The notes: generated by a model not told the origin, from the letters alone. 64,000 nucleotides of DNA from an uncultured Candidatus Saccharibacteria bacterium (GCA_963716565.1 OY970318.1:830-64829), one strand, 5' to 3'; shown: positions 3,001 to 44,004, counted from the stretch's first letter. Translations and numbers: made by a program.

Positions 3001-3636
3001 AGCTTCGCCATCGACACCAAAACTATAACCGCCTCCTCCGGCGCCAATGGCAGTATTGATCCGACTGGCACAGTAACCGTTAACTACGGCAGCGACCAAA
3101 CCTTCACTATTACAGCTGACCCCGGTTACCAAGTTGACGATGTGCTAGTCGACTCCGTCAGCGTCGGCGCTCTAACCGAATACACTTTCACTAATGTCAC
3201 TACTAACCATACGATTAGCGCTAGCTTCACGATCATTCCCGTTGTTACCCCAACACCTACGCCAACTCCCGCCTCCACGCCTACACCCACTCCGGCTTCA
3301 ATCTTTGTATCTGGGCAAATGCCTGCCTCTACGCCGACCCCAACCCCAACTCCCGAAGAAATGGCCTCTACAGAAAACCAAGCAGAAACCAACAAAGAGG
3401 CTGCCCAGTCTGGAAGCTCCAACAAATCATTAGCCATCTTTATTGCTTGCTTGGGTGGCTTTGCATTATCCTTATCGGTTTTCGGATTTTGGTATCATGC
3501 TCGACGAAGATACGATGATGCCACTAACCAGGCGTATCACCAAGTAGCAGGGAGCGAAGTTAAAGCCCAGACAATTGCACCCAATAGCCAAACGGCTTCG
3601 CAATACGATCAACCCCCTAATCGCAATATCTTTTAG
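1..3636 (+). CDS. Repeat-rich cell-surface protein, 5' end cut by the window edge (beta-helix-like region, Ig-like 'InlB B-repeat'-type modules, Pro/Thr linker, C-terminal membrane anchor)
   Basis: Frame 1 is open from base 1 (NGSYFYSNLTINKSGGVASLAANYSVSTANQRVTITAGTLATAGYTLALSGAG...). This matches the interior of the next gene, so the TTG at 139 in the ORF track is not the true start. The protein has about 74-aa modules of the form Y.ITAS.G.NG.I.P.G....Y.ITP..GY.I.DVLVDS.SVG....YTFTN(I/V)T.NHTIS.SF. A PT-rich linker lies at about 3235-3360. A hydrophobic segment LAIFIACLGGFALSLSVFGFWY followed by HARRR forms the anchor. Confidence 0.85.
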   Translation, partial: NGSYFYSNLTINKSGGVASLAANYSVSTANQRVTITAGTLATAGYTLALSGAGSVFSNDGTLRVQGGETLTFTKDTNSGTVEYVGTGATNYASLNYGNTYYGLTINSTSGTNSFTAAAATAVGNDFTLTSGTFVAPSAANLTVSRNFTHFGGNFTHNSGTVVLNTTTMAEVTGSTTFNNLTCSTGGKTLNFGAGDTQTVVGTTTLNGSAGNLLTLNSNASPTQWRIDPQGTRSVSYVDVKDSNNIAVASIGPSNSTNSYNNTNWFSYSVTASAGANGSIDPTGVSNYDSGSSPTYDITPDPGYHIADVLVDSVSVGTPTSYTFTNITANHTISVTFTIDTYTITASAGSNGAIDPVGTDTYNLGDNATYDITPNANYHIADVLVDSVSVGTPTSYTFTNIVTNHTISVSFAIDTKTITASSGANGSIDPTGTVTVNYGSDQTFTITADPGYQVDDVLVDSVSVGALTEYTFTNVTTNHTISASFTINTYTITASAGSNGAIDPVGTDTYNLGDNATYDITPNANYHIADVLVDSVSVGTPTSYTFTNIVTNHTISVSFAIDTKTITASSGANGSIDPTGTVTVNYGSDQTFTITADPGYQVDDVLVDSVSVGALTEYTFTNVTTNHTISASFTINTYTITASAGSNGAIDPVGTDTYNLGDNATYDITPNANYHIADVLVDSVSVGTPTSYTFTNIVTNHTISVSFAIDTKTITASSGANGSIDPTGTVTVNYGSDQTFTITADPGYQVDDVLVDSVSVGALTEYTFTNVTTNHTISASFTINTYTITASAGSNGAIDPVGTDTYNLGDNATYDITPNANYHIADVLVDSVSVGTPTSYTFTNIVTNHTISVSFAIDTKTITASSGANGSIDPTGTVTVNYGSDQTFTITADPGYQVDDVLVDSVSVGALTEYTFTNVTTNHTISASFTINTYTITASAGSNGAIDPVGTDTYNLGDNATYDITPNANYHIADVLVDSVSVGTPTSYTFTNIVTNHTISVSFAIDTKTITASSGANGSIDPTGTVTVNYGSDQTFTITADPGYQVDDVLVDSVSVGALTEYTFTNVTTNHTISASFTIIPVVTPTPTPTPASTPTPTPASIFVSGQMPASTPTPTPTPEEMASTENQAETNKEAAQSGSSNKSLAIFIACLGGFALSLSVFGFWYHARRRYDDATNQAYHQVAGSEVKAQTIAPNSQTASQYDQPPNRNIF
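1018..3237 (+). repeat. Five near-perfect tandem copies of a 444-bp unit (148 aa, two B-repeat-like modules each)
   Basis: The string acttacaccatcaccgcctccgccggcagc recurs at 1018, 1462, 1906, 2350 and 2794, a period of 444. The antisense ORFs in the track repeat with the same period and identical sequence. Only a few substitutions are visible (for example gttgac/gtcgac near 2260 and 3148). Confidence 0.95.
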
Positions 3637-3810: not shown

Positions 3811-11391
<7,581 letters not shown>

Positions 11392-23383: not shown

Positions 23384-23770
23384 GGGACTGACTTTAGCTC
23401 GACGTTGAATATTAACAATTTATGCATGCAAGCCGGTTTGTGCACCGTTACCGTACTACAATAAGTAGATGGCAAAAACTTTCTACAGCGTGTAGCTAGC
23501 ATGTTTTCCATGCCAGCTTACGCACCAGCCCTAGTTTAATCTAAGGCGATTGCTTGGTTTGATGCCAGGTAGAACCAAAGCAGTCTCATATTTTCTGGCT
23601 GCCAATCTTGAGCACCGTTTGAGCTCATTTTTGTAAGCTTTTCGAACTGCGGCTAATAGTTTTTTGTCTGTTTTATAACTAGTAGCCTAAGACACCCCAA
23701 ACAGAATAAGCTTGTAGAGGCATGAGTTGTTGTTCGACGGACCCGGGTGCGATTCCCGGCAGTTCCACCA
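23384..23770 (+). ncRNA. ssrA: tmRNA (SsrA)
   Basis: The 5' end GGGACTGACTTTAGCTCGACG resembles the canonical GGGGCUGAUUCUGGAUUCGACG. At the 3' end the T-arm is CCGGG-tgcgatt-CCCGG, followed by CAGTTCC-A-CCA. The 7-bp acceptor stem pairs 23384-23390 with 23760-23766 and includes a G3:U70 pair. A candidate tag ORF GGC AAA AAC ... GCC CTA GTT TAA runs 23470-23538. Its reading frame is tentative. Confidence 0.85.
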
Positions 23771-39113: not shown

Positions 39114-39416
39114 ATGGGCCTATTTAGTTTTTTTAAAAAGCAGTCCGACCAGCAAGTACAAAATCAAAACATGGCTGATAACCAGCTTAGCCCTGCAGCC
39201 GATGTGCCTGCAGCTACTCCACCAGTAAACGTTAACCAAGTGCCGCCGTCACCAGCTCCAATGTCACCAAGCAATCCAGAACCGGTTGTTCCACCCACAG
39301 AACCAGCCGCCCCAGCAGAAAATGCTAACGATGTAGCAGGTGATTCACTAGATGGTGCTCAAAGCGATAGCGGCAGCGATTCGGGCAGTTCTGACGCCGG
39401 TGACTCCAGCTGGTAG
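39114..39416 (+). CDS. Pro-rich, acidic low-complexity protein (100 aa) with an amphipathic N-terminus
   Basis: GGAG precedes the ATG. The sequence runs MGLFSFFKKQ..., then a PxP-rich middle, then a DSGSDSGSSDAGDSSW tail. Confidence 0.55.
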   Translation: MGLFSFFKKQSDQQVQNQNMADNQLSPAADVPAATPPVNVNQVPPSPAPMSPSNPEPVVPPTEPAAPAENANDVAGDSLDGAQSDSGSDSGSSDAGDSSW

Positions 39417-39432
39417 TTTTTAAGCTTAACCA

Positions 39433-39462
39433 TTGACTAAAAATTAAATAATTTTTTAAAGT
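39433..39462 (+). promoter_or_regulatory. Weak candidate promoter for the structured RNA
   Basis: TTGACT lies at 39433-39438, followed by an 18-nt spacer and TAAAGT at 39457-39462. Confidence 0.3.
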
Positions 39463-39468
39463 GTTTTT

Positions 39469-39924
39469 TGCTATTATTTAAAGAACCTCTTGTTGGGAGG
39501 TCTTGGGGGACTATAAGCAAGCGGTCCGGGCAAATCGGGGCATCACGTTTTGTTCAAGTAATGAACCGTACGGGCTTGATCTGTGATGAGTTAGCGGTGA
39601 CACTCAACAACACCAGCCGGGGTGCCCTTAGGGGCTACCACCAATACGCATGGGTTTACCCAGCCGTGGCGAAGAGCCAACGGCCCGAGTCACTCCTTGA
39701 TGTATGGGGGTGACATCCATCTGTGTTACCTGTGGCTCAGGTATAGGCGGAAGCGCCTTATCAGGGCCATCAAGGTCAAGACCACTGTGGGGGTATCCAA
39801 AACCTATGCGCCTTCCAGGCAGGCACGAAACCAAGTTCCCCGGTTTGCCTTTCGTGCCTGAAAACTCTGCGGATAGTCCAGTGGTATCCATTCCATCTGG
39901 GCTATCCGCTATAACCATAGTCTT
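39469..39924 (+). ncRNA. GC-rich structured non-coding region directly upstream of the RT; candidate retron msr-msd RNA (boundaries uncertain)
   Basis: GC rises to 58% (counted over 39601-39660) against 17% in 39421-39480. The ORF track shows overlapping ORFs in several frames on both strands with no SD or start context, a typical non-coding signature. An 11-bp perfect hairpin pairs 39820-39830 with 39850-39860. A 13 to 16-bp hairpin spans 39869-39909. A 13-bp long-range complement pairs GGGCAAATCGGGG (39528-39540) with CCCCGGTTTGCCT (39838-39850). Confidence 0.55.
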
Positions 39925-40995
39925 ATGAGCCAGATACAATTATTTGATCCAGAAGCATTAATGCAACCAGCGGTTGACCCCAGGGTCGAAAAATTATTGA
40001 GTGGCTTTGAGGACGCTAGCTTTAGGACATTCCCAAAACAAGAGCGCGATAAAGTTCGTTGGCTGCACGATCCCAACGAAAGCATGCGAGAGGCACATGA
40101 ACTTATTAAAGAGCTCGCTGCGAATGCTAGTGCCATATCGCCACATGCCACTGGGCTACAAGGTGGTAGTCGTGCCAATGCTGAACGGCATTTGGGCAAT
40201 AAGTTTTTTTATTTGATTGATTTAAAAGATGCCTACGGACAAATACAATTACCAGCGCTTGCAGAATTTTTAGGCAACCATGGCTTTCCAGCCGAGACTG
40301 CTGACATCGAAACTATTTTAAATCGTTTTTGTCGCAAACCCGACGGGCAGGGTCTTTGCCAAGGGGGCCCAGCCTCGCCGTTACTATTTAACATTGCCCT
40401 TTATGATGTCGACCAACAAATAGCGGGAATATGCGAAAAGCATGAACTAACTTATACGCGATATGCGGATGATTTGGCTATTTCTGGCCGTGAATCAATT
40501 GGCGATAAGAAGCGTAAGCAAATACGTGGAGTTCTTGAAGAGGCTGGGTTAGAAATTAGCCATAAAAAGACTCACCGCCATAGTTTGGCGAATGCTCCTG
40601 TAGTTGTGACTGGCATTCAGATAAATCGCAGCGGTTCAATTATTTTACCTACGCCCAAACAGCTAAGAGTAGCTAATATTATAAATGAGCTGTGCTTTCA
40701 AGTATTCGAGGATGGCGAACCATTAACCGAATTGCAGGTCCAAAAGGTGGCTGGCTACAAAGGCATGGTTATGTCTGCTATCGATGGGCGTCGAAAAGAT
40801 CTAACGGCTTTCGAAAAAGATGCTCTTGTAAAAGCCGAAGCATTAAGACTTTCGTATAAGCAGAGTAGGGAGACGGTCAATTTGGGCTTCACGGCTCTTA
40901 GATTATTCAATGGTCGACCGATGCAAATCGAAATTGTCGATGGTAGATTCCGCAGAGTAGTCGGCCCATCATTTGAACTGCCAAAACGGGATTAA
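39925..40995 (+). CDS. Retron-type reverse transcriptase (356 aa)
   Basis: Motifs in order are SRANAERH (NAxxH), YLIDLKDAY, LCQGGPASPLLFN (QGxxxSP), YTRYADDLAIS (YADD codons 40462-40473), SHKKT and PVVVTGIQIN (VTG). The protein aligns by eye along its whole length with retron Ec86 RT. Confidence 0.85.
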   Translation: MSQIQLFDPEALMQPAVDPRVEKLLSGFEDASFRTFPKQERDKVRWLHDPNESMREAHELIKELAANASAISPHATGLQGGSRANAERHLGNKFFYLIDLKDAYGQIQLPALAEFLGNHGFPAETADIETILNRFCRKPDGQGLCQGGPASPLLFNIALYDVDQQIAGICEKHELTYTRYADDLAISGRESIGDKKRKQIRGVLEEAGLEISHKKTHRHSLANAPVVVTGIQINRSGSIILPTPKQLRVANIINELCFQVFEDGEPLTELQVQKVAGYKGMVMSAIDGRRKDLTAFEKDALVKAEALRLSYKQSRETVNLGFTALRLFNGRPMQIEIVDGRFRRVVGPSFELPKRD

Positions 40996-41022
40996 TGTAA
41001 GAAATCTGTTAAAATATATCTG

Positions 41023-43029
41023 ATGAACGCATCTGAAATTCGTAAAGCCTTTTTGGATTATATGGCAAAAAATGGCCACACTGTAATTCCGCGTGCCAAT
41101 TTGGTGCCACAAAATGACCCAACTACTTTATTCACCGGTTCGGGCATGCAACCGCTGGTGCCGTATTTGTTAGGCGAAAATCACCCAAGTGGCAACAGGG
41201 TAGCTAATAGTCAAACCTGTTTGCGTGCTGAAGATATAGAAGAAATTGGCGACATGTGCCATACCACCTTTTTTGAAATGCTTGGCAACTGGAGTTTTGG
41301 AAATTATTGGAAGGAAGAACAGCTAGCTTGGCTATTTGAATTTCTAACAGATAAGGTTGGACTTGAGCCATCAAAACTTTACGTAACTTGTTTTTCTGGT
41401 GACAAAGAAGTAGGAATACCGCCAGATGAAGATTCGGCCAGAAAATGGAAAGAACTATTTAGCCTCAAGAATATAGAGGGCAAAATAGTCGAAATCGGTT
41501 CTAAAAAAGACGGTGGCATCAAAGGTATGCAAGACGGTCGGATTTTTTATTACGACGCCGGCAAAAACTGGTGGAGTCGAGCTGGGACCCCTAAAGAAAT
41601 GCCTGCTGGCGAACCTGGCGGCCCAGACAGCGAAGTTTTTTATCGTTTTTCTGACGATGAGCACAGTGAAGAAGAAAAGAAACAGTTTGGCGAACAATGC
41701 CACCCCAATTGCGAATGCGGTCGTTTTTTAGAAATCGGCAACTCAGTGTTTATGCAATATATTAAAAGAGAAGATGGTTCTTTTGGTCCCTTGCCAAAGA
41801 ATAATATTGACTTTGGTGGCGGTTTAGAGCGCATTGCTGCAGCTAAAGCTAACAATCCGGATGTCTTTAAGATTGATTTGCTCTGGCCGATTATTCAAAA
41901 ACTCGAAGAATTATCGAGCATGAAATATGATTTTACTCCTGGCGATTTGGGTTACGAAACGGTTCCCGAATGCTGGATAAAAGTTATGGAATCTATGCGG
42001 GTGATTGCCGATCACTTGCGAGCGGCCGTTTGGCTGGCAGTGGATGGGGTCGTGCCCAGCAACAAAGTTCAGGGCTATGTAATGCGTCGCTTAATGCGCC
42101 GTGCTATTCGCTACGCCTTAGAACTTAAGATAGAACAAGATTTATGCGAGCGCATTGTTCCTACGATTATTGATATTTACCAAGCCGATTACCCAGAGGC
42201 GAAAGAAGCTAAAGACAAGATTATAGATGTATTGACCAAAGAAGAAAAAATCTTCCGGCAAACCCTAAAAAAAGGGCTAAAGGAGTTCGAGGGTTATTTT
42301 GCAAAGATAGCAGTCGAATATGACACAAAAGTTGCCACTCCAGAAGAGGTAGCGGAAAAAACGGGGCAATTTGTCCCTCTGTTGAAGTTAACGGGAGAAA
42401 TATTATTTAAGCTATATGATACTTATGGTTTTCCGATTGAACTCTCCAAAGAGGAAGCCATTAACAGAGACATCAAGGTTGATGACAATGCTGAAGAGGA
42501 ATTCAATAAGCTCATGCAAGAGCAGCGGCAGCGTTCGCAGACGGCAGCGCAAGGGGCTTTTAGGGGCGGCTTAGCCGATAGCAGTGAAATGACTACCAAA
42601 TATCACACTGCGGCGCACCTGCTAATGCAAGCCCTAAGAAGCGTATTAGGTGATCATGTTAGCCAAAAGGGCAGCAACATCACCGCCGAGCGTTTGCGTT
42701 TAGACTTTAGCCATCCCGAAAAGGTAACGCCCGAACAACTGGCCGAAGTCGAGAAAATTGTTAACGAAAAAATCCAAGCCGACTTACCTGTTACCTGCTC
42801 CGAACAAGATGTAAAACAAGCTATGGCCGAAGGCGCTCAAGGCGTTTTTGGCGATAAATATGGCGACAAGGTAAAAGTTTACTCAATCGGCGACTTTAGC
42901 AAAGAAATCTGTGGCGGCCCACACATTGACCACACTGGCCAGCTAGCCGAAGGTGATAAAAAATTTCGCATTACAAAAGAAGAGTCTTCTAGTGCAGGGG
43001 TTAGGCGAATTAAGGCCGTTCTAGCCTGA
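41023..43029 (+). CDS. alaS: Alanyl-tRNA synthetase, short form (668 aa, no C-Ala domain)
   Basis: Motifs are MNASEIRKAFLDYMAKNGHT, FTGSGMQP, FFEMLGNWSFG.YWK, editing-site HTAAHLL and CGGPH. An extended -10 TGTTAAAAT lies at 41006-41014. Confidence 0.9.
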   Translation: MNASEIRKAFLDYMAKNGHTVIPRANLVPQNDPTTLFTGSGMQPLVPYLLGENHPSGNRVANSQTCLRAEDIEEIGDMCHTTFFEMLGNWSFGNYWKEEQLAWLFEFLTDKVGLEPSKLYVTCFSGDKEVGIPPDEDSARKWKELFSLKNIEGKIVEIGSKKDGGIKGMQDGRIFYYDAGKNWWSRAGTPKEMPAGEPGGPDSEVFYRFSDDEHSEEEKKQFGEQCHPNCECGRFLEIGNSVFMQYIKREDGSFGPLPKNNIDFGGGLERIAAAKANNPDVFKIDLLWPIIQKLEELSSMKYDFTPGDLGYETVPECWIKVMESMRVIADHLRAAVWLAVDGVVPSNKVQGYVMRRLMRRAIRYALELKIEQDLCERIVPTIIDIYQADYPEAKEAKDKIIDVLTKEEKIFRQTLKKGLKEFEGYFAKIAVEYDTKVATPEEVAEKTGQFVPLLKLTGEILFKLYDTYGFPIELSKEEAINRDIKVDDNAEEEFNKLMQEQRQRSQTAAQGAFRGGLADSSEMTTKYHTAAHLLMQALRSVLGDHVSQKGSNITAERLRLDFSHPEKVTPEQLAEVEKIVNEKIQADLPVTCSEQDVKQAMAEGAQGVFGDKYGDKVKVYSIGDFSKEICGGPHIDHTGQLAEGDKKFRITKEESSSAGVRRIKAVLA

Positions 43030-44004
43030 AAGCCCTTGGACTGTTTCTTCTAAAATGGTTTTAAGGTGTCTTGTAAGCGCGTAGTAGGACGTTGGATTGT
43101 TTTCTGGAGTATATGTTTCTTTTCTCTCTTTTCCGCTAGAGTCCAACTGAACTTGGGTGCCGTCTCTGTCTCTAGCAATATATCGTTCGGCAACAGTTTG
43201 CTCAACAGTATAACCAAAGGCATCACTGGCATCTCCCAAGCAGAGGTAGGAGAATTTTTTAGCCATCGTTGTGTTGTCGTGGTTCTGTAGCAACAGTACA
43301 GAATATAACTTGTACCGTTGTTTTCTAGGATTTTCACCTTTTTCTGTTTCCTCGCGGGGTTCTTCCTCGGTATTAATAGCTAATCCTAGTCTATCTCCGT
43401 TTGGTAATGTCTGAATGCAGGTTTGGCTCTCAACCGATTTACCTTCGTAACAGCCTATACATTTTGTAATCCCCTCTATTAAGCGATCATCTAAGACATC
43501 GTCTTGGTATACAGATGGATAGTCAATTGGTAATAGCTCACCGCCACTTCTCGCGGCCAGCAAATTGCCCAGTAAATGCGTGGCAAGGAGAGGGTTGCGA
43601 ATTATCGTTTGTTTTTGAGTTGGCGCAGATATAAGCATCGCATTTTTGTTGGTTGTGATATTTATGGGCATACCATCTGCTTTAAAAGTTATTTCTGACT
43701 TCCAATTCAAACCTTGCAGGGCACTTAACTTTGGGCCCAAACGGCGGAATCTTACGTTTAACTCTGTGGTCAAAAAGCTCTCTGGCAGTCCTAACGATTC
43801 CCCAATATCTTCTGGTAATGTTTTTCTGTGCAGCCTAAAAGCATCCTCGGCCTCCACGCTACAGTTGTGCGAAGAAAAAGCTTGCATAAATTCAAAGAAG
43901 CTTCTAGACTCAAGAAATTCTTCTAGGGCTCTGGGTTCGGTAAAAATATCTTGGCCCATTTCACCAAATTGCCAGGGGCTATCGTATTCAGAACCACTTC
44001 TCAT
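43021..44004 (-). CDS. Hypothetical protein (327 aa), convergent with alaS and overlapping it by 9 nt
   Basis: This is a long ORF. No motif was recognised. Confidence 0.55.
   Translation of the reverse strand: MRSGSEYDSPWQFGEMGQDIFTEPRALEEFLESRSFFEFMQAFSSHNCSVEAEDAFRLHRKTLPEDIGESLGLPESFLTTELNVRFRRLGPKLSALQGLNWKSEITFKADGMPINITTNKNAMLISAPTQKQTIIRNPLLATHLLGNLLAARSGGELLPIDYPSVYQDDVLDDRLIEGITKCIGCYEGKSVESQTCIQTLPNGDRLGLAINTEEEPREETEKGENPRKQRYKLYSVLLLQNHDNTTMAKKFSYLCLGDASDAFGYTVEQTVAERYIARDRDGTQVQLDSSGKERKETYTPENNPTSYYALTRHLKTILEETVQGLSG

Follow-up and report, generated by a model that had tools for sequence, protein, structure and literature searches.

Does the GC-rich region directly upstream of a reverse transcriptase (RT) gene in a Candidatus Saccharibacteria genome specify the RNA of a retron? 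We addressed this question for positions 39469-39924 of a 64,000-nt stretch of DNA from an uncultured Candidatus Saccharibacteria bacterium (GCA_963716565.1 OY970318.1:830-64829; the whole stretch is called the window, and all coordinates count from its first letter). A sequence-only reading had described this region as an oversized structured RNA whose ends pair like the a1/a2 inverted repeats of a retron. We consider it likely that the region is a noncoding RNA (ncRNA) gene of the msr-msd type, belonging to a retron-like element in a genome of the candidate phyla radiation (CPR). This reading is carried by the family of the RT, the structured ncRNA, its closing helix and the recurrence of that helix in the clade, a covarying 3' hairpin, and the boundaries of the unit that RNA and RT form together. 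Judged from the sequence, the unit would be a new, effector-less retron variant, predicted to synthesize msDNA (multicopy single-stranded DNA), starting at a putative branch G.

The noncoding region and its closing helix

The region differs from its surroundings in base composition. Its GC content is 53.1% over 39469-39924 and 55% over 39490-39910, with single 60-nt windows reaching 63%, compared with 44% for the whole window and 15 to 20% for the AT-rich stretch just upstream (15% in the lowest preceding 60-nt window). The contrast with the preceding stretch is thus real, although the 58% first given for the region was somewhat high. The only close relative with readable DNA is L001, a Joint Genome Institute (JGI) metagenome contig that is syntenic for a small open reading frame (ORF), the noncoding region, the RT, and alaS, with amino acid identities of 73% (small ORF), 60% (RT), and 76% (alaS). 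While these flanking genes align, none of the stop-free stretches in the six frames of 39469-39924 encodes a peptide conserved in L001, which agrees with the claim that the region is noncoding; blastn likewise leaves the noncoding region unaligned between window and L001. Rfam offered no competing RNA family, and neither the group II intron nor RNase P nor 6S RNA was matched: at the gathering threshold, no family from a search of the whole window matched 39469-39924, and at E ≤ 10 the segment 39300-40100 yielded only chance-level matches resembling C/D small nucleolar RNAs (E of 4 to 8). The + strand of the region folds with -188.4 kcal/mol (z = -4.8), which none of 100 shuffles equaled, and the fold of the - strand is weaker (z = -3.2). 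The structured RNA and its reported helices are present, and the coordinates of all features proved correct with the sole exception of one repeated 8-mer, which was off by 1.

The fold is closed by a long-range helix between GGGCAAATCGGGG at 39528 (arm a1) and CCCCGGTTTGCCT at 39838 (arm a2). The two arms form 13 contiguous pairs, 2 of them G:U, exactly as had been reported, and the helix closes the minimum-energy fold with a pair probability of 0.85. Since 12 of 300 dinucleotide shuffles contain a helix of this quality, which makes it only weakly significant alone, its significance must come from relatives. In L001, the helix at the same position is matched by 2 of 300 shuffles; its arms, GGCAAATCGGGG and CCCCGATTTGCC, keep 12 of the 12 shared pairs, with one U:G pair of the window turned into U:A. 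Because the helix is invariant in this close pair, classical covariation neither supports nor refutes it. The covariation check suggested for 39528/39838 is accordingly uninformative with two sequences, while closing repeats do recur at the level of the family.

This recurrence was seen in seven distant relatives of the RT (L002, L053, L054, L057, L058, L060, and L061; 27 to 40% identity), all of which have a gene-free region of 380 to 640 nt upstream of the RT gene. Six of the seven have an inverted repeat, unrelated in sequence and 234 to 380 nt in span, as their best long-range helix: 16 bp over 234 nt in L054, 11 + 11 bp over 244 nt in L053, 10 bp over 266 nt in L057, 12 bp over 281 nt in L002, 9 bp over 320 nt in L061, and 13 and 11 bp over 360 and 380 nt in L060. 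The corresponding 3' arms end 22, 24, 30, 181, and 33 nt before the RT start and, in L060, 69 and 34 nt before the RT. Counting the window and L001, with L058 as a ninth locus, the closing helix belongs to the minimum-energy fold of 7 of the 8 loci analyzed. The enclosed regions are 234 to 395 nt long, fold with z scores of -4.3 to -6.5, and have a GC content above that of the RT gene, and the closing repeats differ in sequence among loci except between the closely related window and L001. Because the a1/a2 helix closes the minimum-energy fold, is kept in L001, and recurs as analogous repeats in the distant relatives, its reading as a retron-type repeat is supported. The same comparison qualifies the description of the RNA as oversized: the whole leader does measure about 430 to 450 nt, but the a1-to-a2 unit of 323 nt is normal for the clade (234 to 395 nt), so that the term describes the clade rather than this locus. 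In L060, which has the largest RNA of the clade (395 nt), the 13-bp and 11-bp helices (3072-3097 and 3419-3466) cross, and they would form either a pseudoknot or alternative closing helices. As for further relatives, a scan of genome contigs returned only the distant L002, and a metagenome scan with the RT protein alignment found none. A scan of metagenome DNA with GGCAAATCGGGGNNTCACG gave 50 loci, all of them chance matches without a2 and without an RT, and within the window the a1 sequence has no other target above chance.

Inside the closing helix, the RNA has a possible msr/msd layout, with three short hairpins after a1 followed by a closed, branched domain. The msr-like segment is, besides a1/a2, the part best conserved in sequence in L001, and its hairpins show both one-sided and two-sided changes. 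The stem closing the msd-like domain is the second-best long-range helix (pair probability, 0.88). This domain cannot be aligned to L001 by blastn, yet L001 has an equivalent closed, branched domain, and the consensus helices in it carry 5, 3, and 2 two-sided changes, the 5 being those of the central long hairpin; the complementary DNA strand of the domain also folds (z of about -2). Overall, the upstream region of L001 (z = -8.9) has the same layout as the RNA of the window, with a1/a2 around three short hairpins and then a branched domain with its own closing stem. RNAalifold found 82 pairs common to the window and L001, 20 of them changed on both sides, compared with only 0 to 4 two-sided changes when the partners were slid by 1 to 3 columns as a control. 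These counts are optimistic, since the consensus structure was derived from the same two sequences.

Two local hairpins had been reported toward the 3' end, and both are present at their claimed positions (39820-39860 and 39869-39909). The first pairs AGGCACGAAA at 39821 with TTTCGTGCCT at 39850, plus a C39820-G39860 pair, and had been taken to form a pseudoknot with a1/a2 or to exclude it. In the window, forcing this hairpin yields a structure of practically the same energy as the minimum (-182.9 versus -183.5 kcal/mol), and in such folding models the hairpin may be either an alternative to a1/a2 or part of a pseudoknot with it. In L001, however, only 5 bp of it are possible. Because forcing it there costs about 20 kcal/mol, the hairpin is lineage specific, and there is no conserved pseudoknot or switch.

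The second hairpin, between a2 and the RT start codon, has the arms GCGGATAGTCCAG at 39869 and CTGGGCTATCCGC at 39897. Its counterpart in L001 (842-905) differs in sequence (GCGGGCAGUUCC.../...GGAACUGCCCGC), and the 12 shared pairs comprise 4 two-sided changes, 1 one-sided change, and no broken pair. It ends 15 nt before the RT start codon, and the sequence after it, UAUAACCAUAGUCUUAUG, contains no T-run, leaves no space for a promoter, and shows no visible Shine-Dalgarno sequence. Since L002 has an intrinsic terminator at the same position, the hairpin is, by analogy, a candidate for the 3' end of the RNA or for an attenuator element that permits read-through into the RT. The terminator of L002 is a true intrinsic one, located 12 nt after a2, and downstream of it the RT has a ribosome-binding site of its own; the L002 RNA is thus a separate RNA and not a leader. 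The L002 locus, from a Saccharibacteria metagenome-assembled genome, also contains a tandem duplication with a period of about 480 to 497 nt (copies at 2056-2271 and 2534-2742). It covers the 3' half of the RT-upstream RNA, including the a2-like arm, with an intrinsic terminator closing each copy (2245-2271 and 2717-2742).

The reverse transcriptase and the unit it forms with the RNA

The downstream ORF is an RT of the retron family, as motifs, profile models, and structure matches agree. PADLOC ranks the retron RT_III-A model first (7e-37), followed by II-A, X, VI, and Ec107-like models, with nearly tied scores (125, 114, and 111 bits for III-A, II-A, and X; 105 to 125 bits for the type models), and NCBIfam matches it to retron_St85_RT (6.7e-38). 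The protein contains NAERH (residues 85-89), YADD (180-183), and VTG (228-230), as well as QGxxxSP. Of these, NAxxH in region X and VTG in region Y distinguish retron RTs (Mestre et al. 2020, PMC7736814), so that both hallmarks accompany the retron hidden Markov models as best matches. By sequence, the PDB entries most similar to the protein are RTs from retrons Ec78/Eco7, Ec86, Kva2, Ec67, and Ec83. An AlphaFold (AF2) model built from 44 sequences (predicted local distance difference test [pLDDT] score, 87.7) shows fingers and palm, a helical thumb (243-311), and a disordered tail of about 45 residues (312-356), with no extra domain. When this model was compared with the PDB by Foldseek, the top 18 matches were all retron RTs; RTs of a group II intron, DRT9, G2L4, a diversity-generating retroelement (DGR), and DRT2 came later, with DRT9 and DRT2 at ranks 24 to 33.

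Within the retron family, the RT does not score as a member of any one of the typed clades I to XIII in PADLOC or NCBIfam. Its own clade is sparse: among 1.84 billion proteins searched, only 33 representatives reached E ≤ 1e-30, and none of the 35 nearest representatives goes beyond about 1e-37 on any type model. One neighbor in the protein search is 53% identical and the next 40%, and the exact RT of the window is on record from one 799-kb contig only. Members of the wider clade (P0008, P0010, and P0015 to P0017; L054 at 5683-5991 and L055 at 2490-2798) show features of a DnaG-type zinc ribbon (PF01807), either fused to the RT, as in several of them, or encoded as a separate 102-amino-acid gene with an ASCH-domain gene nearby. 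This module, which the RT of the window lacks, could be an accessory in sister lineages.

The extent of the unit follows from an empty site. In the related Saccharibacteria contig L062, which has mnmA, the small ORF, and alaS, only 39 nt separate the small ORF from alaS; its alanyl-tRNA synthetase (AlaRS) is 70% identical to that of the window, and the 39-nt spacer aligns, in both of its halves, with the flanking sequences of the window and L001. Promoter, RNA, and RT therefore constitute one indel of about 1.56 kb without a third gene. The structured segment 39484-39910, contiguous with the RT and on the same strand, is gained or lost jointly with it. The small ORF lies outside the unit, since it is present at the empty site. 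Among the distant relatives, no neighboring gene recurs, and the genes downstream are often on the other strand. The coordinates of the unit and of its parts are collected in the table.

Features of the RNA-RT locus, in window coordinates.
Feature	Position	Strand	Basis or detail
Promoter-RNA-RT unit, approximate extent about 1.56 kb	39440-40996	+	Indel relative to related contig L062
Candidate extended -10 promoter, TGcTATTAT	39469-39477	+	TG-n-TATTAT kept in L001 at 449-457
Alternative consensus promoter match	TTGACT 39433 / TAAAGT 39462	+	Pair picked instead by a consensus scan
5' leader hairpin upstream of a1, ACCUCUU/GGGAGGU	39485-39501	+	In minimum-energy fold; weak evidence
a1, 5' arm, GGGCAAAUCGGGG	39528-39540	+	Pairs with 39838-39850
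msr-like segment, three short hairpins	39541-39640	+	Kept in two-sequence consensus fold
msr-like hairpin P2	39541-39589	+	
msr-like hairpin GGUG/CACC	39596-39614	+	
Third msr-like hairpin	39621-39639	+	
msd-like central domain, branched, GC-rich, about 165-190 nt	39647-39810	+	11-bp closing stem CGCAUGGGUUU/AAACCUAUGCG
Local hairpin, 11 bp, 19-nt loop containing a2	39820-39830/39850-39860	+	-17.0 kcal/mol alone
a2, 3' arm, CCCCGGUUUGCCU	39838-39850	+	Same evidence as a1
3' hairpin between a2 and RT start codon, 13 bp	39869-39881/39897-39909	+	Probability 0.997; -27.4 kcal/mol
Retron-family RT, 356 amino acids, no effector domain	39925-40995	+	Pfam RVT_1, E = 3.6e-22

The sequence TTACCAGACAAC at the empty site of L062 (4964-4975) resembles both borders of the insert, the left border at 39428-39438 reading AACCATTGAC (L001 counterpart at about 403-413) and the right border at about 40977-40985, inside the last RT codons, reading TGCCAAAAC (in L001, TTACCAGAACAA at 1996-2007). 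Going by sequence likeness, this may be a degenerate target-site duplication, or it may be coincidence.

Retron-like function and its alternatives

Terminal inverted repeats around a structured RNA upstream of a retron RT are the architecture of retron ncRNAs (PMC7736814, PMC8632793). Khan et al., in an experimental census of retrons, recognize such RNAs by an inverted repeat of >8 bp, a G near the start, and several hairpins at most 500 bp from the RT, and the region shows these features, with the 13-bp a1/a2 helix enclosing its msr-like and msd-like parts. The nearest RT models among retrons (Mestre et al. 2020, PMC7736814) are III-A, II-A, X, and St85/Sen2, and the nearest solved retron RTs are Eco7/Ec78, Ec86, and Ec83. 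With retrons, the unit shares the RT fold, NAxxH, and VTG, an ncRNA directly upstream on the same strand, a 13-bp a1/a2 helix around short hairpins followed by a large, fast-evolving domain, and a G at the inner end of a1, where both the window and L001 have a GGGG run. For the steps from msDNA synthesis to biological function, including the branch G, the msr/msd boundary, and the role of the 3' hairpin, we infer the following scheme. The RT would bind the msr hairpins after a1, prime from the 2'-OH of the G at the inner end of a1 (with G39540 as the candidate priming or branch G), and, beginning at about U39837 and moving leftwards, copy the msd domain into single-stranded DNA of about 150 to 190 nt. 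The 3' hairpin would set the 3' end of the RNA or attenuate read-through into the RT, so that the RNA probably outnumbers the RT mRNA. Since no effector is encoded in the unit, the output would have to act via a factor encoded elsewhere or as the cDNA/RT complex.

Several observations weigh against this assignment or set the unit apart from described retrons. The a1/a2 helix is invariant, without true covariation, in the only close pair of sequences, and a consensus derived from just two close sequences inflates the pair counts. In the msr-like segment, the base of P2 is energetically disfavored in the window, and forcing it costs 18 kcal/mol. The msd-like domain is branched instead of being the typical single or double long hairpin of retrons, and an additional covarying hairpin stands between a2 and the RT. 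One of the seven distant relatives, L058, has no clear long-range helix. The RT falls far below the trusted cutoffs of every typed retron model (130 bits versus a cutoff of 235 for St85), and its lineage is untyped. Furthermore, characterized retron defense systems have three parts, whereas the insert consists of RNA and RT only, and no cognate effector is fused to the RT or adjacent to the unit. The a1-a2 length of 323 nt (clade, 234 to 395 nt) also departs from the classical msr-msd RNAs, which are roughly 150 to 250 nt long according to the sequence-only reading. Finally, the host has a Saccharibacteria (CPR) genome of about 0.8 Mb, a lineage for which we found no retron report in the literature, and the unit sits in a housekeeping locus (ATP synthase subunits, mnmA, alaS, and an FtsA-like gene) instead of a prophage or defense island.

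An RT and ncRNA lacking a reliably associated effector are also found in the Ec107 (Retron-Eco5) branch, clade2_Ec107like, whose orphan retrons possibly use unknown trans factors or have another function (Mestre et al., PMC7736814). This branch occurs mostly in Bacillota and host-associated settings, and the Ec107-like model (1e-29) fits the RT of the window no better than the III-A, II-A, and X models do.

It is conceivable, if unlikely, that RNA and RT together form an autonomous element, complete without any effector protein. In one version of this idea, the cDNA or the RT-RNA-DNA complex would itself be the functional output and would work, in the reduced genome of an episymbiont, as sensor, decoy, or template. 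In the other, the unit would be self-mobilizing and would have inserted between the small ORF and alaS, as the degenerate TTACCAGAC-like direct repeat at its borders hints. If this were the case, the Saccharibacteria-centered clade would constitute a new type of retron whose way of acting differs from that of toxin-sequestering retrons.

We regard as rather unlikely a related explanation, in which the pair acts like the effector-less defense RTs DRT2 and DRT9 without making 2'-5' branched msDNA. The upstream ncRNA would then serve both as scaffold and as template, with the cDNA as the functional output, be it a concatemer, a homopolymer, or a de novo gene. In its architecture, the unit does resemble these two-component systems, in which a solitary RT without effector follows a large structured ncRNA and the cDNA is the functional product. 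Moreover, its RNA is larger and more branched than a classical msr-msd RNA, its RT core is weakly similar to the Drt2 and Drt3a models, and the Foldseek ranking given above includes structures of DRT9 and DRT2. Against this stands the lineage of the RT, which differs from the UG/Abi class of DRT2 and DRT9: similarity to that class is confined to the RT core, the protein is far closer to retron RTs (1e-37 versus 2e-12 for Drt2, with retrons as the top 18 structures), and it carries the retron-specific NAxxH and VTG. The terminal inverted repeat around the template is likewise a retron hallmark. At the sequence level, the window shows no sign of rolling-circle or homopolymer synthesis, and the loci have no common stop-free frame and no conserved peptide on either strand. 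Two specific candidates of this kind were rejected. For a DRT2-type RT/ncRNA pair, the Drt2 model gave 46.9 bits against a cutoff of 390, and no stop-free frame is shared; for a hidden, Neo-like ORF, the minus-strand ORFs of 103 amino acids in the window and 102 in L001 have no peptide similarity.

Alternatively, the region could be only a long structured 5' leader that regulates translation or stability of the RT, with no part in templating or priming. Its position directly upstream on the same strand, without a terminator T-run, means that it is probably cotranscribed with the RT, and the nearness of the 3' hairpin to a start codon that lacks a visible Shine-Dalgarno sequence would suit such a role. 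We nevertheless think this improbable: a retron-family RT needs a cognate RNA, for which the region is the only candidate inside the 1.56-kb unit; long-range terminal pairing is present in six of seven distant relatives with unrelated sequences; and in L002 an intrinsic terminator closes off the RNA itself, the RT being served by a separate ribosome-binding site.

That the region is an independent housekeeping or unknown RNA gene, or belongs to some other retroelement (a DGR template repeat or the remnant of a group II intron, for example), is hardly credible. Many CPR RNAs are similarly GC-rich and structured, and DGRs are the dominant RT class in CPR (PMC8632793). However, RNA and RT come and go together as one indel, which contradicts an independent RNA gene, and a large gene-free region accompanies the RT in every relative, in differing genomic contexts. 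Moreover, Rfam gave no match (group II intron, RNase P, and 6S RNA included), the 64-kb window contains no variable-repeat-like copy of the region, and the RT combines QGxxxSP with retron motifs, with DGR RT structures ranking lower. A DGR was also tried as a candidate in its own right and rejected, since nothing in 39469-39924 occurs a second time within the 64 kb and DGR RTs rank below those of both retrons and group II introns.

In current understanding, retrons are three-part phage sensors that resemble toxin/antitoxin systems, and they also serve as tools for genome editing. Read as retron-like, the clade described here has RNA and RT only and is stable in housekeeping loci of ultra-small CPR genomes, which prompts the question what role a retron without an effector has in a genome of about 0.8 Mb. 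It would also extend retrons to a phylum in which DGRs are thought to dominate the RT content. Its templates are unusually long (about 150 to 200 nt or more), and it is tempting to speculate that the clade could offer compact RTs with a naturally long template capacity for cDNA production, for which the empty-site comparison provides clean boundaries of a minimal unit for synthesis.

Flanking genes and further features

Transcription of the RNA is predicted to start at about 39484, and either of the two promoter candidates (table) would place the start at about 39470 to 39485. L001 does not share the 5' leader hairpin; at this position, a different hairpin forms or P1 is extended outward. The direct 8-mers described earlier do exist (GGTATCCA at 39792 and 39883; TCCATCTG at 39716, not 39715, and 39892), but two such repeats are at chance level (1.55 expected; P = 0.4), and they are not conserved in L001.

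The small ORF upstream of the unit (39114-39416, +) encodes a low-complexity protein of 100 amino acids with the N terminus MGLFSFFKKQ and an acidic, Ser/Asp-rich C terminus. The ORF and its leader are conserved in L001 and L062, and it has no family match and no match to PADLOC or other defense families. Downstream of the unit, the AlaRS gene (41023-43029, +) encodes a short protein of 668 amino acids, like those of Saccharibacteria relatives (625 to 680); its named relatives mark the organism as a member of the Saccharibacteria/Saccharimonadales. An orphan ORF of 327 amino acids (43021-44004, -) separates alaS from the FtsA-like gene, at a distance of 2 kb from the RT. Considered as a trans effector, it had no match in Pfam, NCBIfam, PADLOC, or the PDB, and a single-sequence model of it was unusable (pLDDT, 36). 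L062 lacks this ORF, its alaS being followed directly by the FtsA-like gene, which makes it a second lineage-specific indel. No tRNA gene was found near the region or elsewhere in the 64-kb window. A transfer-messenger RNA gene is located at 23384-23770 (+), with an Rfam score of 106.5 bits and the tag peptide GKNFLQRVASMFSMPAYAPALV.

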